Virus record (IMG/VR): IMGVR_UViG_3300044840_000050
Span: 1 to 61,628 of that record
Reading direction: 5' to 3' (one strand)
Length of the DNA: 61,628 nt
Origin: a virus
Lineage: Duplodnaviria; Caudoviricetes
Below are positions 8,143 to 58,993 of the stretch, in pieces (the first letter of the stretch is position 1; the number at the start of each line of letters is the position of its first letter). The notes under the pieces were generated by a model. That model ran no database searches. It saw only the letters and a program-made list of their open reading frames with translations, and was not told the origin of the DNA. Position numbers and translations under genes: made by a program.

Positions 8143-8297
8143 ACTCCAGCGAGGCTCGCCCTGCTCCGGGCGAACATGAGCCGCTGACGTATGACAAGAA
8201 GCGTGCGTTCGCCGAAGTCACGTTCCCCGAAGGATTTGTGGGGACAGCTCCTCTCGTCGCGTATACCGATGTGGGGGCTGATGACACTCCTGAGTAA
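8139..8297 (+). CDS. hypothetical protein
   Basis: ATGA overlap. Confidence 0.4.
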   Translation: MNSSEARPAPGEHEPLTYDKKRAFAEVTFPEGFVGTAPLVAYTDVGADDTPE

Positions 8298-8781
8298 CGG
8301 CTCCGCCGTAAGAGACGATGACCCAGGTGAGCCCTCTACAGGGAAGCCCAGAGTCAGTGTCACCGAGGACGAAGCCCGCATCCTTAGCCGCCTGGCTACA
8401 GGGCAGGTAGTCCTCGAGCTCGGCACGGGGCTGGGCGTCAGCACCAGGGCCATGGCGGCCACTGCCCGTGCAGTGCGCACCATCGACCCGGACCCGTGGG
8501 TGCATCAGACCATCTGGCCCACGCTGCCCAACCTCGTGACGCATGCCGCGCTCCTCAACCCCGGCAACAGCGGCGTCTTCGATGTCGCCTTCATCGACGC
8601 TGACCACACCAGCGAAGCAGTAGAGGCCGATGTGCGCTATGCCCGCACCATGCTTCGCGAGCCTGGCCTCATCGTCTGCCATGACGCGAACTACGACAAC
8701 GTCAAGCAAGGCTTAGCAAGAGCAGGTGGTACGTGGGTGACGATCAACACCACCCACGGCCTAGCCCTCCAATGGGTGTGA
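8281..8781 (+). CDS. class I SAM-dependent methyltransferase (Methyltransf_24-like)
   Basis: VLELGTGLGVST, FDVAFIDADHT, GLIVCHD. Confidence 0.85.
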   Translation: MTLLSNGSAVRDDDPGEPSTGKPRVSVTEDEARILSRLATGQVVLELGTGLGVSTRAMAATARAVRTIDPDPWVHQTIWPTLPNLVTHAALLNPGNSGVFDVAFIDADHTSEAVEADVRYARTMLREPGLIVCHDANYDNVKQGLARAGGTWVTINTTHGLALQWV

Positions 8782-8784
8782 ACG

Positions 8785-9081
8785 ATGGCCTCGCAACGCG
8801 GAGTACGCACGCCGTACAAGATGCGCGCCTGGAAGGCGACCCGGCTGTTCGTGCTGAACCGCGATGGCTGGACCTGTCAACTCCGTAGACCGGGTTGCAC
8901 GGGTACCGCAACCGAGGCGGATCACATCATGCACTGGAACCCGGACGGTTCGGGTGGCCCGTGGATTGATCCTCTCAATCTGAGAGCTGCTTGCAAGCAC
9001 TGTAATTCTGGTCGGCGCAGAGGCGCCTCGACCGTGGTATCGACACCAGATGGAGCGGTGAAGCCTTCCCGCGACTGGTGA
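8785..9081 (+). CDS. small HNH endonuclease (HK97 gp74-like)
   Basis: VLNRDGWTCQLRRPGCTGTATEADH...NLRAACKHCN. Confidence 0.85.
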   Translation: MASQRGVRTPYKMRAWKATRLFVLNRDGWTCQLRRPGCTGTATEADHIMHWNPDGSGGPWIDPLNLRAACKHCNSGRRRGASTVVSTPDGAVKPSRDW

Positions 9082-9100
9082 CCACACCTAGCCCATAAGC

Positions 9101-9157
9101 GGCCCCCGCGCAGTGCGACCTGCCGGGGGTCTGGCCAATCCTGGTGAGAGGATCGAC
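9101..9157 (+). promoter_or_regulatory. two-hairpin leader sequestering the RBS of the HNH gene
   Basis: GGCCCCCG/CGGGGGTC stem (9101-9131) and ATCCT/AGGAT stem (9138-9153) covering GAGG. Confidence 0.55.
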
Positions 9158-9868
9158 ATGGAGAAGCGTACGTGTGAGACGTGCGGTCATGGCTACACAC
9201 CGAAGGACAGACGAGGTCGCTTCTGCTCGACCCGCTGTCGCGAGGCTCACTGGTCACGCAGACCAGCACGGCCATACCGACGGACATGCCCAGCTTGTGG
9301 CCTCCAGTTCAAGAGCACGAAGCGCCGATGCGACACGTGTGCGGTGGCGCGCAGATCGCCTGGCCCGTCATCGCCCATCACATATGACGACTGCGAATGG
9401 TGCGGCCGATGCTTCGTCGCTAGGCGCAAACGGAAGTACTGCTCGCTTCAGTGCCAACGGTGGCAACACCCCAATGCGCAACGACTGAGCGCCATCGGCT
9501 ACAGCAACTGCACGGTGTGTGGCACCACGTTCGTACGGAGAGCAGGCATCATCGGCCGCTGCTGCTCCGAACCATGTAGACGCAGAGCGCGCAGACGACA
9601 CGAACGCAAGCGACTACGCAAAGCACAACTACGCGATCGATACACATTGCGCGAAGTAGCCGAGCGCGATGGCTGGCGCTGCCACCTCTGCCACAAGGCA
9701 GTCCCAGACCGGCCCTATGCAGCTCGTGACGAAGATGCCACCGTCGACCATCTCGTACCGCTCAGCGCAGGTGGAGACGACACGCTGATCAACGTGGCCC
9801 TTGCTCACAACGGATGCAACACCCGACGATCAGACCGAGGCGTAGCGCAACTCAGACTGCTCGCCTGA
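9158..9868 (+). CDS. free-standing HNH endonuclease with N-terminal zinc ribbons
   Basis: repeated CxxC...FCSxxC; RDGWRCHLC...ATVDHLVPLSAGG...NVALAHNGCN. Confidence 0.9.
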   Translation: MEKRTCETCGHGYTPKDRRGRFCSTRCREAHWSRRPARPYRRTCPACGLQFKSTKRRCDTCAVARRSPGPSSPITYDDCEWCGRCFVARRKRKYCSLQCQRWQHPNAQRLSAIGYSNCTVCGTTFVRRAGIIGRCCSEPCRRRARRRHERKRLRKAQLRDRYTLREVAERDGWRCHLCHKAVPDRPYAARDEDATVDHLVPLSAGGDDTLINVALAHNGCNTRRSDRGVAQLRLLA

Positions 9869-9963
9869 CTACGCATAGTGGGGGTGGGCATCGGCACGGC
9901 ACGGCACCACGCCCGCTCCGACCCGACACCTGACGATTTTTACTCCGGGAGATTTTTGGGCCG
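9869..9963. other. candidate cos/packaging-site region
   Basis: non-coding gap in the HNH-terS block; GGGGGTGGG run, (CGGCA)x3, GATTTTT x2; positional inference. Confidence 0.45.
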
Positions 9964-10251
9964 ATGGCGACTCACGGGTCTGTGCATCAGCCGGTCTACG
10001 ACTCGACTGCGTGGAAGCTGGTCCGGAAGTCGGTCCTAGCGAGGGATGGGTTCCGATGCCAGATCAGACTTCCGGGGTGCCTGGGAAGGGCGACGGCCGC
10101 GGATCACGTGGTGGAGCTCGAGGACGGCGGAAGCCCGTACTCCCTGAGCAATCTGCAGGCGGCGTGCCGGCCGTGCAACACGGCAAAAAGGAACCGGTCG
10201 CTCGCAAAGCGCGCCCGGCAGCTAAACCCGACCCAACTCCGGCGGTGGTGA
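9964..10251 (+). CDS. small HNH endonuclease (terminase-associated, gp74-like)
   Basis: VLARDGFRCQIRLPGC...ADHVVEL...NLQAACRPCN directly before terS. Confidence 0.88.
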   Translation: MATHGSVHQPVYDSTAWKLVRKSVLARDGFRCQIRLPGCLGRATAADHVVELEDGGSPYSLSNLQAACRPCNTAKRNRSLAKRARQLNPTQLRRW

Positions 10252-20036: not shown

Positions 20037-20839
20037 GAGTCCTAGTTTCAGGTGGCGCGGGCTTTATCGGCTCGGCTGTCGTTCTACGTCTGAAAGAGCA
20101 AGGCCACGAGCCCGTCGTGTTCGACCGGTTCCAAGGCCAAGACATCGTCGACAGTGGTGCCGTAGCGGACGCGGTCAAAGGTTGCGACGCGGTCATTCAC
20201 CTTGCAGGGATGTTGGGGACGCACGAACTGTTCGACATCGCTCACATGGCAGTGAACGTCAACATTCACGGCACCCTGAATGTCCTGCAAGCCTGCGACG
20301 CGTTCGAAGCGTCGTATGTCGGGATCACGATGCCCGTCTCCGGGTGGGCGAACGTCTACACCGCGACGAAGCACTGTGCCCAGGATCTCGCCTCTGCATG
20401 GCACCGGCACAAGGGCCTGAAGGTCTCTCATGTGCGCGCGTACAACGCGTACGGGCCGGGCCAGAAATGCGGTCCCGGACACCCGCAGAAGATCGTCCCG
20501 ACCTTTGCGACCGAAGCGTGGGCGGGACGCCCGATCCCGATCTGGGGTGACGGGGAACAGACCGTCGACCTCATCCACGTCGATGACCTCGCCCGCCACC
20601 TCGTCGACGCGCTCGCCTATGAAGACGACCGGATCATCGAAGGTGGGAGCGGCGAACCGTTTACCGTGAACCACATCGCCGCGCTCGTCCAGATCGTCAC
20701 TGGCGGCGCGAGCAACGACGTCGAGCATCTCCCGATGCGGATGGGAGAAGACGCCGGCACGAACATCGTGTCACCGGTCAAGAATGCTCCGTTCGATATG
20801 GCCCGCTTCCGCGAGACCGTCGAGTCATACCGGCCATGA
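20033..20839 (+). CDS. NAD-dependent epimerase/dehydratase (extended SDR)
   Basis: GGAGFIG, VIHLAG, YTATK, NAYGPGQ, DLIHVDD. Confidence 0.93.
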   Translation: MRVLVSGGAGFIGSAVVLRLKEQGHEPVVFDRFQGQDIVDSGAVADAVKGCDAVIHLAGMLGTHELFDIAHMAVNVNIHGTLNVLQACDAFEASYVGITMPVSGWANVYTATKHCAQDLASAWHRHKGLKVSHVRAYNAYGPGQKCGPGHPQKIVPTFATEAWAGRPIPIWGDGEQTVDLIHVDDLARHLVDALAYEDDRIIEGGSGEPFTVNHIAALVQIVTGGASNDVEHLPMRMGEDAGTNIVSPVKNAPFDMARFRETVESYRP

Positions 20840-21240
20840 CCCGGTCAACTTGCACGTTCGATGGGTGCCGCGAGCTGCTGAAGGCTGGCGGATACTGCAA
20901 CAAGCACTACATCAGACTGCGAAAGCATGGTAATCCATCGGTCCGAAAGACTCGGACTGGCGCACCCGTGGGCTTTGGGCCGGGGGGTCTGAACCGCGAC
21001 GGTTACCGACGCTTTTATAGAGATGGCGTCCCCGTCTTCGAGCACCGGATCGTGATGGAGCAGCATCTCGGACGCTCGCTGTTCTCGTTTGAGAACGTGC
21101 ATCACAAGAACGGCGTGCGCCACGACAACCGCATCGAGAATCTCGAGCTCTGGGTCACACATCAGCCCATTGGCCAACGACCTGAGGATCTGATCGCCTG
21201 GGCGCATGAGATCCTCGCTCTCTATGGGAATCCAGAATAA
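20836..21240 (+). CDS. free-standing HNH endonuclease
   Basis: EHRIVMEQHLGR...VHHKNGVRHDNRIENLELW. Confidence 0.92.
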   Translation: MTRSTCTFDGCRELLKAGGYCNKHYIRLRKHGNPSVRKTRTGAPVGFGPGGLNRDGYRRFYRDGVPVFEHRIVMEQHLGRSLFSFENVHHKNGVRHDNRIENLELWVTHQPIGQRPEDLIAWAHEILALYGNPE

Positions 21241-25865: not shown

Positions 25866-26480
25866 ATGGAGTGCAGTGTTTTTGAGTGCAACCGTACGGC
25901 GAGCCTTCGCGGCTGGTGCAAGATGCACTACACGCGATGGCGACGCACCGGCGATCCCGAAATGGTCAAGCGGCGACTTGTCTGGGGAACGCTCGAGGAG
26001 CGGTTCACGGCTCGAGTCCCCCGAGGCCCCGTTGCCAAATGTTGGGAGTGGCAGGGCGGTCGCAGCCGACAGGGATATGGGCAAATCGCTGTGGATCGCG
26101 GAGGCGAGCGATGGCGATCCGAACCGGCGCATCGTGTTGCATGGGAACTCGCGAACGGTCCGATTGCCGAAGGCATGTGCGTCTGTCATAGGTGCGACAA
26201 CCCGCCCTGCTGCAACCCGGCTCATTTGTTCCTGGGCACGCCCGCGGAGAACAACGCGGACCGGGACGCCAAGGGACGCCATCGGGCGGGGTCCCAGAGG
26301 AACCCTGCTCGAGGCGAGCGAATCGGTAACGCGAAGCTCACCGCCGAGAAGGTACGCGAGATCAGAGTGTTGTACGCAGCTGGTGGCGTCTCTCAAGCGG
26401 CCCTCGGATCTCGCTTTGGCGTCAATCAGAGCAAAATCAGCGATGTGGTCCACAAAAAGACTTGGGCGCACGTCATCTGA
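25866..26480 (+). CDS. free-standing HNH endonuclease with C-terminal HTH
   Basis: CWEWQG, HRVAWE, VCHRCDNPPCCNPAHLFLGT; TAGGAT -10 6 nt before ATG. Confidence 0.93.
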   Translation: MECSVFECNRTASLRGWCKMHYTRWRRTGDPEMVKRRLVWGTLEERFTARVPRGPVAKCWEWQGGRSRQGYGQIAVDRGGERWRSEPAHRVAWELANGPIAEGMCVCHRCDNPPCCNPAHLFLGTPAENNADRDAKGRHRAGSQRNPARGERIGNAKLTAEKVREIRVLYAAGGVSQAALGSRFGVNQSKISDVVHKKTWAHVI

Positions 26481-39100: not shown

Positions 39101-41510
39101 CGACGGCGGCTGGCTCAACGCGAGCGCAGCGTCGGGCGGCACGGACCGGTACAGCGTCGGGTTCTGGTCGTTGCCGGTCTGGTACGGGCACGTCAACATG
39201 GCCGCCCGTTACGACATCTTCTTGTCGGAAGCGGCGATCTACACCGACGGGTTCACGACCGCCGCGGATGGTGTGTGTTCGTCTACGGGGACTACGGCCC
39301 AGAAGCGGACGATCACCAGCCCGACCGCGAAGTTCACGAGGTCGCATCTCAAAACGTCGATTCACGGTGACGGCATCCCCGCGTTCGCGTTCATCGACGA
39401 CGTCATCGACGCGCACACCGCGGTGATCCAGATCGACTGCATCGGGACGTTCACGAACGCCGTCTGGACTGTCGACGGCAACACGCCGGTACTCGACAAG
39501 CATGTCGGCCTGTACGTGCAGTCCCAACGCCAAGCGTCGAAGAACTGGTCGATCGTGATCAACTCGCCGTTCGTCGCGTATGACGTCGATTCGGTGTACT
39601 CGTCGCCGCTGTTCAAGGACGCCGGTCTCGTGCTCGGGTCCGGGGCACTGTTCTCGATCCAGAACGCGTACACGCTCGACTTTGCGAACGCTTCGACGGG
39701 ATCGATGTTCCAGTCGACGGCGACGTGGAGGTTCCGTCAGTCCGGTAGCGCGGTCGGTTCCGGGACCATGATCCAGAACGCCGCGACGTATAAGAACAAC
39801 CGGCGTACCAGCGCGGCTGACGGTCATACGACGACCGGGTCGACGACGATCACGTCGCCGTCCATGAAGTTCACTGCGGGCGACGTGGGCGCGACGATTT
39901 CCGGTACCGGCGTACCGGTAAAGAAGACGACGACGGCGACCGGGATCACGACGAGCGGAAACGCGACCATCAGTGCGTCGTCGTCGACGTTCGCATCTAC
40001 CGACGTCGGTCGACCCATTACTGGCGCCGGCCTGGCGGCGAACTCGACGATCGCCAGCTTTATCAGCACGACCTCGGTGACCGTGACCCCGGTCGCGACT
40101 TCCTCAACGACACTGACCGTGTTCACGATTCCGGCCGCGTCGATAGCGTCGGTGACGATCGTGGGAAGCGCGGACATGGACGCGACCGCGCTCGCGACGA
40201 ACACGAACACGGTGTTCACGGTCGCGGCGAACGTCACCCTAACCGCCGTGACGGGCGTGTCGATGCAACCCACGTTCCTCGCTGACGGCGTCCCCTTCCC
40301 CACGAGTAACAACGTCGACTTCTCCTCGAACGCGACGTACGGCGGCACCAACGGGGGCGCGATATCGACGCTCTCGTCGAACACATCGTTCCAGTCGCTG
40401 TTGACGCTCGACGCGACGGTGACGCTGTTCACCCGCGTCGGTCTGCGCGTTTTCGACATCACCGGTGCGGGTTCCGTCGGCGTGAACTACGGCATCCTGA
40501 TCGACGCCCTCGCAAACGGCACGGTCGACAACTGGGGTGTCTACAATAACGCGAAGACGTACCTCGGCGGTATGACCGTCAGCACCGCAGGTGTCGTGGC
40601 GGGGACGCACAACCTGTTCACCACGGACGGCGTCTACACCACGGTGACCGGAGGGTTCGGGGCGTTCGGCGTCAAGTATGTCGACAATACGTTTACGCCG
40701 ACGTTGGTTCTCGCCCGCGGGAAAACGACGGGCGGGTTCGTCGCGGTGGGTGACACGCTCGGGACGATCCTGTTCGAGGGTGCGACGAACTCGGGTGCTA
40801 CGGCATTCGCGGGTGGCGCAGGCGTCCGCGGCGTGGCCGAAGAAGCAGGCGGCACCGGCACAACCCACGGTGGGGGACGGGTCGAGATCCTCGCCTCCCC
40901 GATCGGCGCGATAGCGACCGGTGTCGCCGCAGCGTTCGACAGCACGAAGGCGTTCCATCTTGTCCCGACCTACACGTCGGGACGCATCACAGGGTCCGCG
41001 CTCGCGATCAAGGCAGACGGTTCTGTCTGGGTCGGCCCGACCGCGTACGACGCTACGACTCACCAGCCAACCGCGGCAGGTCTCATCATCTCGAGTCTCG
41101 GTGGCCTGACGAGCGGGAGCGGCATCCTTTCAACATCACCGTCGGTCGGTGTTGGCTACACGGTCGGTTCGGGCGGTGCGTGGACGCAGGCGACGTCGAA
41201 GGCGACGGCGGTCGGGACCGCGCAAGCTACGAGCACGAACACGAACGCGATCAACGGACGCATCACCCTCAACGCGGCGGCGCTCGCATCGTTGACGAAC
41301 GTGTCGTTCACGTTCACGAACTCGGCAATCGCCGCCGGCGACGTACTGCCGGTGATGCACCAGTCGGGCGGTACGGCGGGCGCGTATCAGTGTTGGGCGT
41401 CGGCAATGGCGGCGGGGTCATGCACGATCACGGTCCGGAACGCGACCGCTGGTTCGCTCAGTGAGGCGATCGTTATCGGCTTCGCAGTGATCAAGTCCGT
41501 AAACAACTAA
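36105..41510 (+). CDS. large tail fibre/receptor-binding protein (1801 aa)
   Basis: T/G/A/S-rich, repeated beta modules and CBM-like inserts; start chosen after the upstream stop. Confidence 0.82.
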   Translation: MATTTTPLPALHLPRFGNVMPNDIIKRLIDLEQLLMTGYLPGTTNTGGTKFLQGSHANPVTADTTLDSYGTGGSTWLLRAANGAMALPNSTVNGDFLGSFAFGGYGTNSFGFSRPGMYAFAEEDWADNAQASRLSFLTTDTGHGNSTEAARFVPAGGFVNGDIPNLARDSDGIAIVTTNGSPTITAFSGSYTFKTSDIGRRVRGSNPDPIPYGTIIFDVASDGTSARMSSNATSTSALAIVTLGGPFGTGGDAYSLAPYATRTNAIFAGHSSYVPFGSGTSDPHEYVVHFTVIDDVWDDVVGSQASSIIPGGRGLYQLEGTRTIGPNHRPIDAVGGPTWNLSLGFAPMAGNFDVAPGGTITGISDSSWFNASSNGQSFSMFANSSHWANKLFVASAGGTMLMGEVTDFITVDALERAQSHPILGTGAAAFMGRWTGYYAQSPGINGHTPFAPVTIGRAVHFDAGAQRFRNPTVTTAANSRVVTAATTVFRDEDLGAVVFSLIPATYNPSTAYSVFDNVFYLGRIFVCATAGTGHTPPTTATDNTWWQYLCQAPLRLFITKVISGTQAEVNVKIPAAFTGVMKMNDVMLEPIGGEAYAGDAVYAKGARVQYLGESFICNTAGTTGGNAPQLNAAFDLDYEVPRNAGLRTASPMVYTTIGNQNVTGSGVQINPVGGVVRITSSADVTLTAPGVYIGNLMDGAHFTVINRGAYTITVPASLNVPKACVLAPGDAVTWRYEFGGLIGVLVEMSGPKASSFIQTFTQISDVTGNQGNPLHVQVNDTVDYVGPNLGFLGGFTPKTTQTFVGAAFDGTNGYPAVMQGPTGHFQIDGLTEWHYDAGGFGQAAAIIQTATTHKNGPRVTVADVHLTNGSATITSATAAFLTTDTNAYFTASVAGVPRGTTLVYVNATTATMQRWSVASAAFVPSLYTGTTTTTAVGSIWRPLNLPSAALINNSPSWVADKVTTGIANEFTINAPGLQSGYGNPPGIYGITDDQYFSGVDGGWLNASAASGGTDRYSVGFWSLPVWYGHVNMAARYDIFLSEAAIYTDGFTTAADGVCSSTGTTAQKRTITSPTAKFTRSHLKTSIHGDGIPAFAFIDDVIDAHTAVIQIDCIGTFTNAVWTVDGNTPVLDKHVGLYVQSQRQASKNWSIVINSPFVAYDVDSVYSSPLFKDAGLVLGSGALFSIQNAYTLDFANASTGSMFQSTATWRFRQSGSAVGSGTMIQNAATYKNNRRTSAADGHTTTGSTTITSPSMKFTAGDVGATISGTGVPVKKTTTATGITTSGNATISASSSTFASTDVGRPITGAGLAANSTIASFISTTSVTVTPVATSSTTLTVFTIPAASIASVTIVGSADMDATALATNTNTVFTVAANVTLTAVTGVSMQPTFLADGVPFPTSNNVDFSSNATYGGTNGGAISTLSSNTSFQSLLTLDATVTLFTRVGLRVFDITGAGSVGVNYGILIDALANGTVDNWGVYNNAKTYLGGMTVSTAGVVAGTHNLFTTDGVYTTVTGGFGAFGVKYVDNTFTPTLVLARGKTTGGFVAVGDTLGTILFEGATNSGATAFAGGAGVRGVAEEAGGTGTTHGGGRVEILASPIGAIATGVAAAFDSTKAFHLVPTYTSGRITGSALAIKADGSVWVGPTAYDATTHQPTAAGLIISSLGGLTSGSGILSTSPSVGVGYTVGSGGAWTQATSKATAVGTAQATSTNTNAINGRITLNAAALASLTNVSFTFTNSAIAAGDVLPVMHQSGGTAGAYQCWASAMAAGSCTITVRNATAGSLSEAIVIGFAVIKSVNN

Positions 41511-41529
41511 CCAACAAAGGGGACATGTA

Positions 41530-41760
41530 ATGAGCATGGCAGAGAATGGTTCCAACGCGCCCGAACTCACGGTCGATCAGGCCCTCGCGAACGTCGCACG
41601 CGGTTGTGCGATGGCTCCCGGCAATTTGCAGGATCATCAGTTGATGCAGGCGTCGTTGCAGGTTTTGGCGACGACGTTGCGTCAGGCTGCGGAGGCGGCG
41701 GTTCCGGAGTCGGAGGAAGTGGCCGATCAGCCGAACCGTGCGATGCGACGGACGAAGTAA
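41530..41760 (+). CDS. hypothetical protein (possible fibre chaperone)
   Basis: AAGGGG RBS; follows the fibre gene. Confidence 0.6.
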   Translation: MSMAENGSNAPELTVDQALANVARGCAMAPGNLQDHQLMQASLQVLATTLRQAAEAAVPESEEVADQPNRAMRRTK

Positions 41761-42437
41761 TGGCCGTCAACATCGTGAAGATTCACCACGAGGGGGGTGG
41801 CAACCCTCACGACGACCCCGGCCATTCGGGGACGATGGGCTACTCCATCTGGATCGGCCCGTCGCGGTACACGTTGCTCCGCCCACCGTGGCAGGACTTC
41901 GCGACACTCAACCTCAACCATGTCGTCATGTCGTGCTGCTTCAGCGGCCAACGCCACGCCGGCATCTCGGGCGACCCGGCGCATCCGATCACCGACACCG
42001 AGATCGGTCTCCTGCGCGCGGCGGTCGAAGACGCACGCCGAAAAGGTTGGGTGACGAACACCCCCGCCGTGTCGCCCCACGACAACCTCTTCGGTTCCGC
42101 TACGGCATGTCCCGGTTCCGAGGCGTACGCCCGCTGGGTCGACATCGTGAACGCCTGTTACGTGAACACAATCCCGCCCCCCGCACCAGAGGATGACGAC
42201 ATGGAAAGTTACCGATACCCGCACCCCGCGGACCCGAACAAGTTCTCCGGCGCGGTCATTGACCGGGCGAACAAGCGGGTGCAGCTGTACGGCAACGCGA
42301 AGATCAACCAGCCGACCGTGGCAGGCGTGTTCTGGGGTACCCCGAACCCGAACGGCATCCTCACGTCGTATGCCGAACCGAACGGGTTCTGTGTCGTCAC
42401 GACCGATTCGGACGAGTATCACCTTTCCTGGGTGTGA
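41760..42437 (+). CDS. endolysin, Amidase_2-like N-acetylmuramoyl-L-alanine amidase
   Basis: IHHEGG, YSIWIG, PH...ATACPG zinc-amidase pattern; start of lysis region. Confidence 0.75.
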   Translation: MAVNIVKIHHEGGGNPHDDPGHSGTMGYSIWIGPSRYTLLRPPWQDFATLNLNHVVMSCCFSGQRHAGISGDPAHPITDTEIGLLRAAVEDARRKGWVTNTPAVSPHDNLFGSATACPGSEAYARWVDIVNACYVNTIPPPAPEDDDMESYRYPHPADPNKFSGAVIDRANKRVQLYGNAKINQPTVAGVFWGTPNPNGILTSYAEPNGFCVVTTDSDEYHLSWV

Positions 42438-42486
42438 GATGAGTCTCGTTCATGGACGAGCGCCGAGCTAGAAGAGGACCGGACAG

Positions 42487-42558
42487 ATGACAGAACCTAG
42501 GGATCAGCCGGGAGTTGACGCTCAGGGCTTCTCGGTACGCGACCCCACCGAAAACTAA
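42487..42558 (+). pseudogene. orphan 5' end of the 43159 gene
   Basis: MTEPRDQPGVDAQGFSVRDPTEN* matches GVDAQGQPVIDPTKN (11/15 aa). Confidence 0.8.
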
Positions 42559-43115
42559 ATGTGTTTCCACTTCTTGCGCTTCACGATGAGATTTACCTGA
42601 CCCGCAGTGACGCCGTACTCTCGGCCGAGCGATGCCATCGTTATGTCGCCCACAGCGTGTCGGCGACGAATCTCAAGCACCTCGGGAGCGGTCAGACGGG
42701 CCTGCGCATTGCGTTCCCCCATCGCCGCTCGCTCGGGATGAATACGCAGTCCGTTTCGATCACCGAGCGCCCGACTCTCTGGCCGTGTGTAGACGCCAGC
42801 CTTTTCACCGCTGGCCGTTCGGCCTTTCTCTACGCAGTCTCGCCTATTGTCGAGTTGAGTCCCAGCAAAGAGATGCTCGGGGCGAACGCAGAGCCCATTG
42901 TCGCAGCGGTGACAGACGAGCAACCCGTCGGGGATTGGTCCGATGAACTGTTCGTAGGCGAACCTATGTGCGCTCACGCATCGGCTTCCGACACTAAATA
43001 CGCCGTACCGACCAGCGCCCCCCGTCCATATCCAGCACGGCCCAAGTTCGGGCTGATGCTGGGGGATTGGCCCGAGCTTGTTGACTTTTGCCCAGAACCG
43101 TTCAATCGGCGTCAT
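42555..43115 (-). CDS. free-standing HNH endonuclease (paralog of 25866)
   Basis: CWIWTG, HRFAYE, VCHRCDNGLCVRPEHLFAGT; TAAACT -10 6 nt before ATG. Confidence 0.93.
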   Translation of the reverse strand: MTPIERFWAKVNKLGPIPQHQPELGPCWIWTGGAGRYGVFSVGSRCVSAHRFAYEQFIGPIPDGLLVCHRCDNGLCVRPEHLFAGTQLDNRRDCVEKGRTASGEKAGVYTRPESRALGDRNGLRIHPERAAMGERNAQARLTAPEVLEIRRRHAVGDITMASLGREYGVTAGQVNLIVKRKKWKHI

Positions 43116-43158
43116 CTCAACAGTTTATTGCACAGGTCGTCGGGTCGAAGGATGAGAC

Positions 43159-43695
43159 ATGGCTAAGGAAGGAGTCCCCGGTCTGGGGGTAGATGCACAG
43201 GGCCAACCGGTCATAGATCCCACTAAAAACGTCTCAGACACTGTCGAAGCGGCCGTCAAGCGGCTCGATGATATCGCCTTGCTTAGGGCTTATTACATCG
43301 AGCGGGAGATGGAACTCCGGGCCGACTTCCAACATCAGCTCGACGCGAAGGAAGCGGCCCGTCTTGATGCCAACCGTTCGCAGGACCAGGACAACGCCCG
43401 ACGCCAGGCAGAGACGGCGCTCGCGGCCGTGCAAGCTCTCGCGACGCAGGTCCCGATCACGGCGGACGCCGTGCGTAGCGCGTCGGCGGCATCGCTGAAC
43501 CCGATCCAAGAGCGGCTGACGCAGATCGAGCGGATTCAGTATGAGCAGGCCGGGCAGAAGGCGGGCGTGGTTGAGACGAAAACGGACCGGGGCGCGAACT
43601 CGGCGCTCGTGTTCGGTGCCATCGGGGCACTGGTCGGCGTGTTCGGATTCCTGCTCGGCGCGGGCAGTCTCATCTTCGTCGTCGTTCACGGCTAG
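43159..43695 (+). CDS. membrane protein, coiled coil plus C-terminal TM (lysis region)
   Basis: LVFGAIGALVGVFGFLLGAGSLIFVVV. Confidence 0.75.
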   Translation: MAKEGVPGLGVDAQGQPVIDPTKNVSDTVEAAVKRLDDIALLRAYYIEREMELRADFQHQLDAKEAARLDANRSQDQDNARRQAETALAAVQALATQVPITADAVRSASAASLNPIQERLTQIERIQYEQAGQKAGVVETKTDRGANSALVFGAIGALVGVFGFLLGAGSLIFVVVHG

Positions 43696-43704
43696 GAGAA
43701 TCCC

Positions 43705-43773
43705 GTGGGTGGTTTGATCGGTCTGCTCGTTGTCATCGTCCTAATCGTCATCGTCGTCAGGATTCTGTTGTGA
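43705..43773 (+). CDS. 22-aa single-TM peptide
   Basis: AGGAG RBS; MGGLIGLLVVIVLIVIVVRILL. Confidence 0.6.
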   Translation: MGGLIGLLVVIVLIVIVVRILL

Positions 43774-43961
43774 TGCTTGCCGTACACACCATGTCCGCCG
43801 GGACCGAAGCGGTCCTCTACTTCATCGCGCTAGTGGCGTTCGTCGTCGCTGCGATCTTCGCGTTCGTGACTGCACCCCGTGCGATCTGGGCGATCCTCGT
43901 CGCTTCCGGTCTCGCGCTATTCGCGCTAGTGCTCTTCTGGAATAGCGCGGCGCTGGCCTAA
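43773..43961 (+). CDS. two-TM membrane protein
   Basis: two hydrophobic helices. Confidence 0.7.
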   Translation: MLAVHTMSAGTEAVLYFIALVAFVVAAIFAFVTAPRAIWAILVASGLALFALVLFWNSAALA

Positions 43962-43990
43962 CCGACGACACCGTTCACTAGGAGACATGG

Positions 43991-44467
43991 ATGTTCGCGT
44001 CGGGCGGAATGAGCGAAGTGGGCTGGGCGGTCGTATCAGCCCTCGCGGTCATGGCGTCGGTCGGGTTCGTGATCTGGATGCGGAAGGCCGCGAAGAAAGC
44101 GTTCATGGCCTGGTTCTCCATCGCGATCGACACGCATGTCGAACCGAAGTTTGAGGGGTTGAAACAGCAGGCCCTCGATTCCGCAGCCGCAGTGAAAGAA
44201 GAGCTGCGGATACATACTGCTGAGGAAGGTGCGGTCGTTCGGCTGGTGGTCCAAGAAGAAGTCGCTCCTCTGCGGGCGATACTTGATAGCCGCAACGAGA
44301 TGTTCGACCACCTAGAGGGTTCTCTTACGGCGACGCAGGACAAGTTGTCGGAGCACATGGCTCACGACGACGCCGTGATGGAACGAGTCGGTGCCGATCT
44401 GCGCGCCGGTCAGGCTGCGTTGCTGCGGACCATCACCCGTAACCAGGACCGCGATATCGACAAGTAA
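43991..44467 (+). CDS. membrane protein (N-terminal TM, coiled coil)
   Basis: AGGAG RBS; WAVVSALAVMASVGFVIW. Confidence 0.7.
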   Translation: MFASGGMSEVGWAVVSALAVMASVGFVIWMRKAAKKAFMAWFSIAIDTHVEPKFEGLKQQALDSAAAVKEELRIHTAEEGAVVRLVVQEEVAPLRAILDSRNEMFDHLEGSLTATQDKLSEHMAHDDAVMERVGADLRAGQAALLRTITRNQDRDIDK

Positions 44468-44527
44468 CCGCGCGTCCGGGCGACGCGTGCAAAGCAGAGA
44501 AAACACCCTCCACCAAAGGGAGTGATC

Positions 44528-45457
44528 ATGCGCGCACGTTTCCTCGCGACATTTGTCGCGCTCGCAACCATCTTCGGCCTCGCCGGCCCAGCCCCCGAAG
44601 CGGGCGCTATCACCGGCCATCCGACACCAACCAACGTCGGAGTCCAAGGGAGCACGACCGCCTATACGGGGCCGTACACGATCACCTCCTGCGGGACGGT
44701 CATCGACCACAAAAGCATCGTGAACCACGACCTGATGATCCGGGCCGGGAACGGGCACGACGACGAAGCGCATCCGTGCGTGACGATCACGAACTCGATC
44801 ATCTACGGCGGCATCATCGACGACGGATACACCGGCCAGGGTTACGGGCCACTGTTGATGAACGACTCGACCGTCATCAACCTCACGACCCGCGACGTCG
44901 CATGCGTCAGTGACACCCGGCTCTACATGCACCGTGACTACGTGTCGGGCTGCCGGTCCGGAGTGCAGACCGACGGGTACACGTCGCTGACCGATAACTA
45001 CCTGCTCGCGGATCGCGAGTCCGGCAGCGCGCACATGGACGGGTTCATCACGAACGGCATGTACGGCACCCCACTCATGCTGCAGAACAACACGTTCGAG
45101 TGCAACGCAACGCTCGGTGACCCGGTCCCGAACGGTGCGGGCTGCGCGGCCGACGCCGCGATCTACCCGGACTTCAGTGCCGAGTCAGGCGTGAACGTCT
45201 GGGGGAACCTGTTCAAAGCCTCGCAGGGCGGCATGTACTACTGCTTCCACTCGCCGTACGAGGCGGGGAAACCGACGTACGGGACCGCGGGCCGGAACAA
45301 CATCATCGTCGGGAACGACTTCGAGTCCGGCAGCTCAGGGAAGTGTGGCAACTCGAACGCCGTGTACGACTGGAACAACGTCGCCGGCTTGTGGTGCAAC
45401 AACACGTTCACCGCTACTGGTGCGGACGTGCATCCGTCGACGCCGGACAACTGCTGA
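44528..45457 (+). CDS. secreted beta-helix (pectin-lyase-like) protein
   Basis: signal peptide MRARFLATFVALATIFGLA...AGA; N/G/D/C-rich repeats, HMDGF. Confidence 0.7.
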   Translation: MRARFLATFVALATIFGLAGPAPEAGAITGHPTPTNVGVQGSTTAYTGPYTITSCGTVIDHKSIVNHDLMIRAGNGHDDEAHPCVTITNSIIYGGIIDDGYTGQGYGPLLMNDSTVINLTTRDVACVSDTRLYMHRDYVSGCRSGVQTDGYTSLTDNYLLADRESGSAHMDGFITNGMYGTPLMLQNNTFECNATLGDPVPNGAGCAADAAIYPDFSAESGVNVWGNLFKASQGGMYYCFHSPYEAGKPTYGTAGRNNIIVGNDFESGSSGKCGNSNAVYDWNNVAGLWCNNTFTATGADVHPSTPDNC

Positions 45458-54187: not shown

Positions 54188-54368
54188 GCGCGTCCCGCAT
54201 CTCGAGGAGCTGGAACGGCTCGAGGCGATTGAACGTCTGAGCGCGGAGTGGGCGGAGGAAGACGCGCAAGCCGAAGCGGTGGCGCGCGCTGACCGTTCGT
54301 GGTTGTCGGAGAACTCGGGCGGTCATATGTCCGAGACCGAGAAGCAAGACCACCCGGAGAATTCCTGA
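54180..54368 (+). CDS. hypothetical protein
   Basis: fills the gap in the operon. Confidence 0.45.
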   Translation: MAERVPHLEELERLEAIERLSAEWAEEDAQAEAVARADRSWLSENSGGHMSETEKQDHPENS

Positions 54369-54844
54369 TGCTTGCCGTCGAGCAGGGTCTCTTGCTAATC
54401 CCGCTTCGCTCGCGTAACGGCGAGTTTCGCTGGGCCAAAGTCGACGTTGACGACGCCCCTATCGTCACGCCCCACAAGTGGTTCTTCGATGGCATGTACG
54501 CGGCGACCAAGAGCGGTAAGCACAACCTTCGGCTGCACCGCCTGCTCGTTGGCAAGAGCATGGCTTGTCGCTCCGTCGAGGTGGACCACATCAACCTCGA
54601 CAAGCTCGACAATCGGCGAAGCAATCTCCGGTTGGTGCCTCACTCGGTGAACAGTCGAAACGTGCCGTCGCAGGGTGGTTCATCGCAGTTTCGGGGAGTT
54701 ACCTGGGACAAGAAGCGGGAGACCTGGCGCGCTCAGGCCAACCATTCAGGCAAGGGCTACCACCTCGGCTACTTCGATGACGAGCAGGAAGCCGCCGCCG
54801 CGGCGATTGCGTTCTGGCGTCATGTTGAGGAAGTCGCCGTATGA
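54368..54844 (+). CDS. HNH endonuclease with AP2 DNA-binding domain
   Basis: VDHINLDKLDNRRSNLR; SQFRGVTW...WRAQ...HLGYF..EQEAA. Confidence 0.92.
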   Translation: MLAVEQGLLLIPLRSRNGEFRWAKVDVDDAPIVTPHKWFFDGMYAATKSGKHNLRLHRLLVGKSMACRSVEVDHINLDKLDNRRSNLRLVPHSVNSRNVPSQGGSSQFRGVTWDKKRETWRAQANHSGKGYHLGYFDDEQEAAAAAIAFWRHVEEVAV

Positions 54845-57938: not shown

Positions 57939-58541
57939 GTGCAGGTCCCTTTCCGGAAGTGCCTGGTGGCGTTCGCTTGTTGCGTCGCCTTCCTGAGTTC
58001 GTGCTCGGACGTACACGACCCGTTAGTCCAAGTGAATCCGACCCCATCCACGAATCAGGCATCAATGAACCCTTCCAGCAGAGCTGCAACGAAACGGGCC
58101 TCTGTGTTGGAGGTCGCGGGAGTGGGTCAGGCCGCTGCGGGCGTGCAGCGCGTGCAAGAGGCCGTGTTCGTGATCGCGGTCGGGAAAGGTTTAGCGGAGC
58201 GGAGTGCCCAGGTGGCGACGGCGAGGCGCACGGGGTCAAGTCGCCCTGCCGTCGCCACCACGGGCTCACTCGACTCTGTTGTCGCATGTATCTACGCGCA
58301 TGAGAGCGGAAATTTCAGCGAGTCGTCGCATCCCAGCTCAGGATCCGGAGCCGCGCAATGGATTCCGAGCACATGGCGCGCGTGGTCTGCGCGCGCCGGC
58401 TACCCAGGATACGCGTACGCGTATCAAGCCCCAGCGTCAGTGCAGGAGGCTGTGCTGCGCTACGCCCTGAACCACGGCGGCGCTGGCAACTGGTCCAACA
58501 AATTCGGGAACGACCCCTGCACTCAGGGAATGGGCGGATGA
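57939..58541 (+). CDS. Rpf-like lytic transglycosylase with probable lipoprotein signal
   Basis: FLSSC lipobox-like; CIYAHESG...GAAQWIPSTW...APASVQ...GAGNW. Confidence 0.75.
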   Translation: MQVPFRKCLVAFACCVAFLSSCSDVHDPLVQVNPTPSTNQASMNPSSRAATKRASVLEVAGVGQAAAGVQRVQEAVFVIAVGKGLAERSAQVATARRTGSSRPAVATTGSLDSVVACIYAHESGNFSESSHPSSGSGAAQWIPSTWRAWSARAGYPGYAYAYQAPASVQEAVLRYALNHGGAGNWSNKFGNDPCTQGMGG

Positions 58542-58939
58542 CTCCGAGCCTTGACCGGCCAGACACCGTATTGATTCGTGACGGTGTCTCCGATGTGATG
58601 CCGATGGTGCTCGGACTCAGTGAGCATCTCGAGATTCTCGAGCCGGTTGTCGGCCTTGTCGCCGTTGATGTGGTGAACGTGCTTCCCGGCGACGTCAATG
58701 CCAGCCTCGGAGAGTACGAGCCGATGCTCGTAGACGTACCCGATGGAGTCGGCGAGCGGATGTCCCGGCATCCACAGTCGGACATAGCCGTTCTTGCCTT
58801 TGGTGACTCGTCCCGTCCCGTATGTCGGGCGAACCATCGCGAGCGGATCTCCGTGTGCCTGCCATCGCGCGTAGTGCTTCGAGCACCAACCGCGCCCAAT
58901 GGCTCGGCAGTCGCATCCATCAATCGTGCAGGTCCTCAT
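58523..58939 (-). CDS. free-standing HNH endonuclease (paralog of 20836)
   Basis: YVYEHRLV...VHHINGDKADNRLENLE; TAAACT -10 upstream. Confidence 0.92.
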   Translation of the reverse strand: MRTCTIDGCDCRAIGRGWCSKHYARWQAHGDPLAMVRPTYGTGRVTKGKNGYVRLWMPGHPLADSIGYVYEHRLVLSEAGIDVAGKHVHHINGDKADNRLENLEMLTESEHHRHHIGDTVTNQYGVWPVKARSHPPIP

Positions 58940-58993
58940 AGTGAGGCAGTTTACCAGTTCACACACGGCGACCACTGACATGGGGACTCAACA

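Follow-up and report, generated by a model that had tools for sequence, protein, structure and literature searches.

A free-standing HNH_3 endonuclease gene lies between a stranded gene start and its probable replacement in a phage genome

This work concerns a short locus in the virus record IMGVR_UViG_3300044840_000050 (Duplodnaviria; Caudoviricetes) of IMG/VR. The complete record of 61,628 bases was analyzed and is referred to below as the window (63% G+C; CheckV completeness of 66). At this locus, a free-standing endonuclease gene of the HNH_3 family, antisense to its neighbors, is flanked by two copies of the same gene terminus, and only one of these copies is continuous with the gene, located at 43159-43695 on the plus strand. 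The other copy is an orphan of 23 codons. The account considered here to be rather probable is that the HNH_3 gene, together with a spacer and the diverged first approximately 38 codons of a homologous gene, invaded the 5' end of the resident gene by one-sided repair and stranded the resident start.

On the plus strand, a Shine-Dalgarno-like GAGG (42474-42477) is located 9 nucleotides (nt) 5' of the ATG of the orphan open reading frame (ORF) at 42487-42558, which reads MTEPRDQPGVDAQGFSVRDPTEN and terminates with a TAA at 42556-42558. The HNH_3 gene, encoding 186 residues, occupies 42555-43115 on the minus strand, and its stop codon at 42555-42557 overlaps that of the orphan by 2 nt. A divergent spacer of 43 nt (43116-43158; G+C content of 0.51) separates the start of the HNH gene from that of the gene at 43159-43695 and holds a GAAGGA at 43147-43152, 6 nt 5' of the ATG at 43159. 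The product of this latter gene has 178 residues and begins with MAKEGVPGLGVDAQGQPVIDPTKNV, and 11 of the 15 residues that align between this start and the orphan are identical. A sequence-only reading of the stretch had reported the GAGG with an orphan ending exactly at the HNH stop and a second copy of this terminus beyond the HNH gene, and this observation is confirmed.

The N-terminus of the protein family concerned was represented by a profile hidden Markov model (HMM) that covers the first 40 columns of an alignment of 29 family proteins, not including that of the window; six-frame pieces of the window and of 111 loci were searched with it. The real start of the gene scored 70.2 bits (E = 9.6e-20) and the orphan, over model positions 1-26, scored 25.4 bits (E = 9.7e-6), and the sole further match in the window was noise (6.6 bits, E = 7.5). 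Because a model built without the window's protein recognizes the orphan at this E value, the orphan is judged by its sequence to be a true relic of a family N-terminus and not a chance match. The GAGG at 42474-42477 may be read as a relic of the gene's original translation start. The orphan retains V, D, P, T, and N, which are all five invariant residues of an 18-row alignment, and is cut off at the invariant N of the DPTxNV motif, right before the invariant V25. Six of its 23 residues are rare in the family, and four of these represent non-conservative changes at well-conserved positions (P7D, G8Q, P17S, and I19R). The rare residues fit some decay after stranding and are silent on the origin of the orphan. 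The locus had been described as the clearest of three split-terminus cases, a count that was not borne out: within 300 nt on either side of the four further HNH_3 genes in the window (20836-21240, 25866-26480, and 54299-54844 on the plus strand and 58523-58981 on the minus strand), there are only low-complexity, out-of-frame matches, and a window-wide self-search yielded no other orphan terminus.

The family is large and is not represented by any Pfam or PHROG model. A search of 5.8 billion proteins retrieved 37 members and IMG/VR contained 5 loci, and 80 of the 147 stretches from a metagenome scan were kept. The nearest protein-atlas clusters are annotated as "hypothetical protein" and are mostly viral. 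Family members have approximately 170 to 220 residues and a nearly invariant N-terminal motif, PGPGVDAxGxPVIDPTKNV, followed by a middle part resembling a coiled coil, by a QYEQAGQK motif, and by a hydrophobic anchor at the C-terminus; the product of 43159-43695 is a predicted tail-anchored coiled-coil membrane protein. Its closest relatives, P0002, P0003, and P0004, share 58 to 64% identity and are known as proteins only, and the closest family DNA at hand is 44% identical at the protein level. Over residues 47 to 178, the gene product and P0002 are 65% identical (86/132). Its N-terminus shares 13 of 25 residues with P0002 and up to 19 of 25 with distant members, and the orphan shares 13 of 23 with P0003, 11 with P0004, 9 with P0002, and up to 14 with distant members. 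Ranking the family members by identity to either of these N-termini of 23 to 25 residues gave no usable phylogenetic signal.

Some further observations on the family can be noted. A degenerate DNA pattern for GVDAQGxxVxDPTENV retrieved two distant members from IMG/VR (L114 and L115) that added nothing, and a pattern for GFSVxDPTENV had no match there. In 185,579 species genomes, there were only two family matches, at 33 to 35% identity, on contigs of metagenome-assembled genomes of Actinomycetota (L112 and L113); one of them is labelled Streptosporangiaceae, and this is a weak hint that the hosts are actinomycetes. In two loci, L047 and L107, the N-terminal profile produced a second weak match (E = 0.6 to 0.8; model positions 29-42) directly after the first, which may correspond to a short internal repeat of an EAAxKRxDD stretch.

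Clear differences emerge when the two N-terminal copies are compared at the codon level. Over the 15 shared codons, 15 of the 45 bases differ (67% identity), with 4, 2, and 9 differences at the first, second, and third codon positions, respectively (third versus first plus second, Fisher p = 0.017), and 7 of the 11 codons that specify the same residue are not identical. Unrelated family pairs with the same amino acid identity of 11/15 (n = 377) have on average 9.0 differences at third positions and 14.6 in total. The two copies are thus as diverged as unrelated family pairs and show an excess of third-position changes, which argues for an old separation with divergence under coding constraint, probably as coding genes in separate phage lineages. 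A recent local duplication is excluded by this codon-level divergence.

The gene itself appears as a mosaic. Two types of informative sites were defined: subfamily sites carry a state that is common to at least two of P0002 to P0004 and rare in 108 distant members, and wider-family sites carry the common distant state that is missing in all three of these proteins. The ratio of wider-family to subfamily sites is 4:1 in residues 1 to 38 and 2:34 in residues 39 to 178 (p = 0.0007). The three subfamily proteins themselves, taken as a reference, gave ratios for the N-terminus and the rest of 0:0 and 2:37 (P0002), 0:1 and 2:39 (P0003), and 1:1 and 10:35 (P0004), and none of them has an excess of wider-family states in the N-terminus. 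Since subfamily-specific residues start at position 39 (IA.LRAYY, as in P0002), the right-hand junction is most likely located in the conserved R-x-D-D codons, at approximately 43265-43275. The present N-terminal segment would then correspond to codons 1 to 38 (43159-43272), with wider-family states and a low G+C content at third codon positions (GC3), and the resident gene body to codons 39 to 178 (43273-43695), which are of the subfamily type and encode the coiled-coil region and the C-terminal transmembrane anchor.

The base composition follows a related pattern. GC3 is 0.83 in the upstream amidase-like gene, 0.65 in the HNH gene, 0.565 in codons 1 to 46 of the gene at 43159, and 0.82 in its codons 47 to 178; for its first 30 to 46 codons, values range from 0.47 to 0.57. 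A single low-GC3 tract, flanked by genes at 0.82 to 0.83, takes in the HNH gene, the spacer, and the new N-terminus. In a comparison across 79 distinct family genes, the step of 0.25 within this gene is the largest, and none of the 78 others reaches it (mean of 0.02, standard deviation of 0.07). The A/T-rich codons that the sequence-only reading had followed to about 43295 are thus real in that GC3 is 0.565 in codons 1 to 46 versus 0.82 thereafter, but the informative sites place the junction nearer to 43265-43275, and the GC3 signal is blurred over codons 30 to 73. Three indirect lines, namely, the divergence of the copies, the mosaic sites, and the GC3 step, speak for an origin of the present N-terminus in a diverged homologue, as had been proposed, and the segment 43159-43272 can be read as having arrived together with the HNH gene. 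The earlier interpretation is in this way partly supported.

The gene located between the two copies matches the Pfam family HNH_3 (PF13392), a His-Me finger family, over profile positions 3 to 46 of 46 with 48.6 bits (cutoff of 24.8; E = 6.3e-13), and with 50.7 bits in a genome-wide scan. Ten PHROG families match its product, all annotated as HNH endonuclease or endonuclease, with E values of 1e-28 to 5e-30 for PHROG 59, 826, and 1872. In an alignment of 11 sequences, H50, R51, and N90 are invariant and H69 is nearly so, and the CHRCDN and PEHL stretches are present. We take the conserved His, Asn, and Cys positions to be the residues of the beta-beta-alpha-metal core. The C-terminal region is also common to the homologues, and it recurs in the HNH_3 gene at 25866-26480, which is 45% identical to this one. 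No solved structure matched the protein by sequence at E <= 0.01. By these family matches, 42555-43115 is a free-standing HNH_3 endonuclease gene, probably of the homing type.

In the favored account, the inserted block would extend from the HNH stop (42555) to approximately codon 38 of the gene (approximately 43272) and would comprise the antisense HNH gene, the 43-nt spacer with its ribosome-binding site, and the first approximately 38 codons of a diverged homologue. Whereas the layout of the locus, the family membership of the orphan, the mosaic nature of the gene, and the degree to which its two starts have diverged are shown by the data, we infer a cut site, a direction of transfer, and a repair pathway with one homologous side and one illegitimate join. 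The cut in the resident gene would have fallen within or adjacent to DPTxNV (codons 20 to 25), its best conserved stretch. From the right-hand end, invasion would have proceeded into the homologous gene of a second, co-infecting phage, in which the HNH gene was located immediately upstream of that gene, and the donor's N-terminal codons, spacer, and HNH gene would have been copied by repair synthesis. Homology upstream of the gene would have been absent between the two phages. In 85 related family loci, corresponding to 78 distinct family genes of which 46 have more than 700 nt of upstream sequence, the window's flanking genes have no homologue beside the family gene at E <= 1e-4, and because of this only the gene itself would offer homology between distant phages. 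Given homology on the right side only, it is proposed that the left end was joined illegitimately after resident codon 24; at most 1 to 3 nt of possible microhomology are present at this junction. As an outcome, the resident ribosome site and codons 1 to 24 would have been stranded as a dead-end ORF of 23 codons, and the gene would have stayed whole through the imported start.

Searches of related loci help to delimit this account. All five HNH_3 proteins of the window were compared by tblastn with the 85 related loci, and in none of them was an HNH gene located upstream of the family gene; protein identity to these distant relatives is 44% at most. The N-terminal HMM detected no separate second copy of the motif upstream of a family gene in any of the 85, nor does the orphan belong to an intact separate gene in any of them, and in relatives such as L007 the family gene starts a few bases after the stop of the upstream lysin gene. 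The insertion of an HNH gene upstream of the family gene thus appears to be sporadic, among distant relatives only. Two family loci possess an HNH_3 gene 1.2 to 1.4 kb downstream of the family gene (L036, 4711-5034, plus strand; L086, 3472-3960, minus strand; 41 to 45% identical), and genes of this HNH_3 lineage may have landed repeatedly in the lysis region. The upstream amidase gene has no relative in IMG/VR, and its best match in the 85 loci is borderline (30% over 120 residues, E = 2.2e-4). Neither megablast of 41500-44500 nor tblastn of the gene gave a match in the phage GenBank collection. In Logan, a single contig of 22,094 nt spans the whole of 41500-44000, is identical to it throughout, and is free of joints; the one public run that contains this stretch may be the source sample and is hence not independent. 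No joint skipping the HNH gene was found in this run, of which contigs only were searched, such that a rare HNH-less form could escape.

Several points weigh against the favored account. The databases searched yielded no donor, no empty site, and no close relative lacking the HNH gene. The nearest HNH homologues were found at 20 loci (34 to 55% identity): duplicated flanks are present at none of the 19 that could be tested, the flank of the twentieth being too short, and the family motif is present at none of the 20. For the N-terminus, the mosaic test relies on five informative sites, and three sequences define the subfamily. With a GC3 of 0.58, the orphan is as low as the new N-terminus, so that GC3 cannot separate the two copies. 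The GC3 step of the gene ranks 4th among 67 crude ORFs within the window, where two of the three higher-ranked ORFs look over-extended at their listed starts, and the change point has near-equal likelihood at codons 30, 45, and 73. The orphan, finally, carries one subfamily-type state, E23, which it shares with P0003, and it is too short for a placement as "native."

The same structure could have arisen with the roles reversed, a reading that is regarded as unlikely but that deserves the most attention among the alternatives. The HNH gene would already have occupied the usual intergenic position, preceding an intact gene with a native N-terminus, and an illegitimate swap of the lysin module would have imported the amidase gene together with orphan codons 1 to 24. 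Lysin modules upstream of the family do differ between phages, and at E <= 1e-4 the amidase has no match in the 85 related loci, the borderline match mentioned above being the best one. The orphan has no clear subfamily signature, with its 6 rare residues out of 23, and its GC3 of 0.58 is unlike that of the gene body, yet this value also differs from the 0.83 of the amidase gene with which it would have arrived. Such a swap, however, leaves it to be explained why residues 1 to 38, and not the body of the gene, depart from the subfamily (4:1 versus 2:34, p = 0.0007) and why the low-GC3 tract continues unbroken from the HNH gene into the first 30 to 46 codons of the gene, whereas the amidase gene and the gene body have an equally high GC3, as would fit two resident genes. 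The evidence from the mosaic and from GC3 is therefore against reversed roles without being decisive. Clearly less probable is an in-place tandem duplication of the gene's 5' end around or before the insertion of the HNH gene, with the copies diverging within the lineage. It would require no second phage, and partial duplications beside free-standing endonuclease genes are described for fungal mitochondria in excerpts of PMC7487136. On the other hand, only 30 of 45 bases are shared by the copies, and their third positions, with 9 of 15 differing, have reached the saturation seen between unrelated phages. The third-position excess indicates coding constraint, of which a dead stub of 23 codons would be free, and such a stub is unlikely to have kept its start, ribosome site, and five invariant residues for so long. 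In addition, no flanking direct repeat remains.

It is very improbable that the orphan is still alive, either as exon 1 of a spliced gene whose intron carries the antisense endonuclease gene or as a working leader peptide. The last orphan codon joined to codon 25 of the gene would indeed give a full family protein in frame, and the ribosome site, the start, and the invariant residues have all been kept; but a search of both strands of 42200-43500 against the Rfam families, which comprise group I and II introns, gave no match at E <= 1, and the orphan has non-conservative residues at well-conserved positions, the four changes given above. Furthermore, the second copy is equipped with a ribosome site and a start of its own and fits the family consensus better (mean of 10.2 versus 8.7 of 15), and for these reasons it is taken to be the copy under selection. 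On the same grounds, namely, the Rfam result and the ribosome site and start of the second copy, an intron was rejected. An intein is impossible with the HNH ORF on the opposite strand, and a transposon or insertion sequence was discarded given that the block ends have neither terminal inverted repeats nor a target-site duplication; the repeats around the block are short and imperfect (10 to 20 nt at 70 to 93%), and none is located at its ends. The least credible explanation is an assembly artefact in which two strains from a single phage population were joined. In its favor, the virus record was derived from a metagenome; against it, the Logan contig, possibly from the same sample, spans 41500-44000 without a joint, the copies share 67% of their bases and are too diverged for strain variants, and the junctions coincide exactly with ORF ends.

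The closest described system is that of the gene hybrids in fungal mitochondria. Excerpts of PMC3630166 and PMC7487136 describe endonuclease ORFs that carry in a terminal gene piece of foreign origin and leave the original end of the gene stranded. According to the former, such hybrids, associated with mobile ORFs (mORFs), exist in Allomyces macrogynus atp6, in Glomus atp6, atp9, cox2, and nad3, in Rhizopus atp9, and in Mortierella cox2; an endonuclease ORF and a foreign C-terminal segment were inserted, and the native C-terminus was left downstream, as first shown for A. macrogynus atp6 (Paquin et al. 1994, cited in PMC3630166). The phage locus resembles these hybrids in that an endonuclease gene is placed inside a conserved gene along with a diverged foreign terminal copy that keeps the frame, in that the terminus taken to be native is stranded nearby, and in that close relatives are less similar to the inserted copy than to the core of the gene. 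It differs from them in several respects. The N-terminus is concerned in the phage and the C-terminus in fungi; the phage endonuclease gene is antisense and unfused, and the imported piece has its own ribosome-binding site; the enzyme is of the HNH_3 type instead of GIY-YIG or LAGLIDADG; and the genome is that of a double-stranded DNA (dsDNA) phage instead of a mitochondrion. Moreover, the native fragments of Allomyces and Glomus were matched to sister species, whereas the phage orphan is no closer to the subfamily than to distant members.

Parallels also exist among phages. In T4, one-sided homing was resolved by illegitimate double-strand-break repair at microhomology, and free-standing endonucleases cut inside a neighboring conserved gene and co-convert flanking sequence, as described in excerpts of PMC2988022. 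The seg and mob genes of T4-type phages, which home without an intron, are similar in that a free-standing HNH or GIY-YIG gene adjoins the target gene, and the outcome of one-sided homing would have the same anatomy as the phage locus. However, the natural insertions in T4-type phages are intergenic and have no orphan, and the one-sided events were engineered crosses, whereas the phage locus is known from sequence alone. Friedrich et al. are said to have reported in 2007 that mobE of the Aeromonas phage Aeh1 splits nrdA into two genes. That case is alike in having an HNH homing gene within a conserved phage gene whose function is kept, but both nrdA parts are needed there, whereas at the phage locus the gene is complete without the upstream piece, which is redundant. 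Some prophages, for example phage 21 and e14 in icd, bring a replacement for the end of the gene in which they integrate. They are alike in carrying a diverged duplicate of the target end, by which the gene escapes inactivation, and in stranding the old end, and different in using an integrase and an att site and in replacing the 3' end; at the phage locus, neither an integrase nor any att repeat, target-site duplication, or terminal inverted repeat was found. A 2023 study places nuclease genes at the boundaries of genetic exchange between phages (PMC10448857), and the phage locus offers the same general picture. Among the titles and abstracts found by full-text literature searches, none describes a natural phage endonuclease gene with a replacement gene start. 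By this comparison, what may be new at the phage locus is the replaced N-terminus, the antisense and unfused HNH_3 gene, the ribosome site of its own, and the dsDNA phage context, whereas the strategy as such is already known in fungi.

Free-standing homing endonuclease genes of phages are thought to spread among close relatives, with homology on both sides of an intergenic site. The locus described here looks like a footprint, left in nature, of a transfer between distant phages with only one gene in common. From the orphan, the join can be assigned to one codon, and the probable cut site along with it; if this cut site holds, the orphan-type and the carried allele would provide a substrate pair for studies of target recognition and self-immunity of the HNH_3 enzyme. 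Through the motif, the imported allele reads GAT CCC ACT AAA and the orphan GAC CCC ACC GAA, with differences at synonymous sites, and the synonymous differences of the imported allele could confer immunity to the enzyme. It is a tentative and rather doubtful extension of this idea that the HNH gene, the spacer with the ribosome site, and the N-terminus of approximately 38 codons form a self-sufficient mobile cassette carrying a cleavage-resistant allele, in the DPTxNV stretch, of its own target. Were this the case, the cassette could enter the coding sequence of any phage sharing only this gene, one-sided homology would suffice, and the gene would never be inactivated; homing genes could then cross between otherwise unrelated actinophage lineages, and orphan starts would be their footprints. 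More generally, the favored account would extend the strategy of combining an endonuclease with a replacement gene end from fungal mitochondria to dsDNA phages and from the 3' to the 5' ends of genes. For genome annotation, it would imply that where a short ORF and the gene beyond a nuclease gene have the same start, the short ORF is to be taken as a relic and not as a gene.

The surroundings of the locus look like the lysis region of a phage. A tail-type ORF of 1,910 codons is followed by the amidase-like gene, the locus, and several small hydrophobic ORFs. The amidase-like gene (41757-42437, plus strand), which marks this region, is a probable Amidase_2-type endolysin gene: its product has no Pfam or PHROG match at E <= 0.01, and the protein atlas gave a lead, and only a lead, to Amidase_2 clusters (feature score of 0.92, structure TM of 0.53). 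Directly 3' of the gene at 43159-43695 are three ORFs on the plus strand, of 22, 63, and 158 codons (43705-43773, 43770-43961, and 43991-44467), the first two very hydrophobic and the third hydrophobic at its start; those of 63 and 158 codons belong to no PHROG or Pfam family, and by their position the three may be holin-like. A consensus scan of 41400-44600 revealed no sigma-70-like promoter. On the plus strand, a hairpin of 15 pairs followed by TTGACTTTTG is located at 43043-43080, within the 5' part of the antisense HNH gene and ending 79 nt 5' of the new gene start. It is terminator-like by a simple scan that found 5 such sites in the region, compared with 2.0 expected; if it works, read-through from the lysin gene would be blocked and the imported block would have to bring a promoter.

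Genes for HNH-type proteins are also present elsewhere in the window. At 8785-10251 on the plus strand, there are three classical HNH domains (PF01844) in series, at 8785-9018, 9113-9868, and 9964-10251, of which the second is found at the C-terminus of a product of 251 residues. The three domains are paralogous (46% identity over 79 residues, E = 1.7e-17) and are flanked by a gene with a methyltransferase domain on the 5' side (8191-8781) and by large ORFs from 10444 on the 3' side. With five HNH_3 and three PF01844 domains, the record of 61.6 kb contains at least 8 domains of the HNH type.

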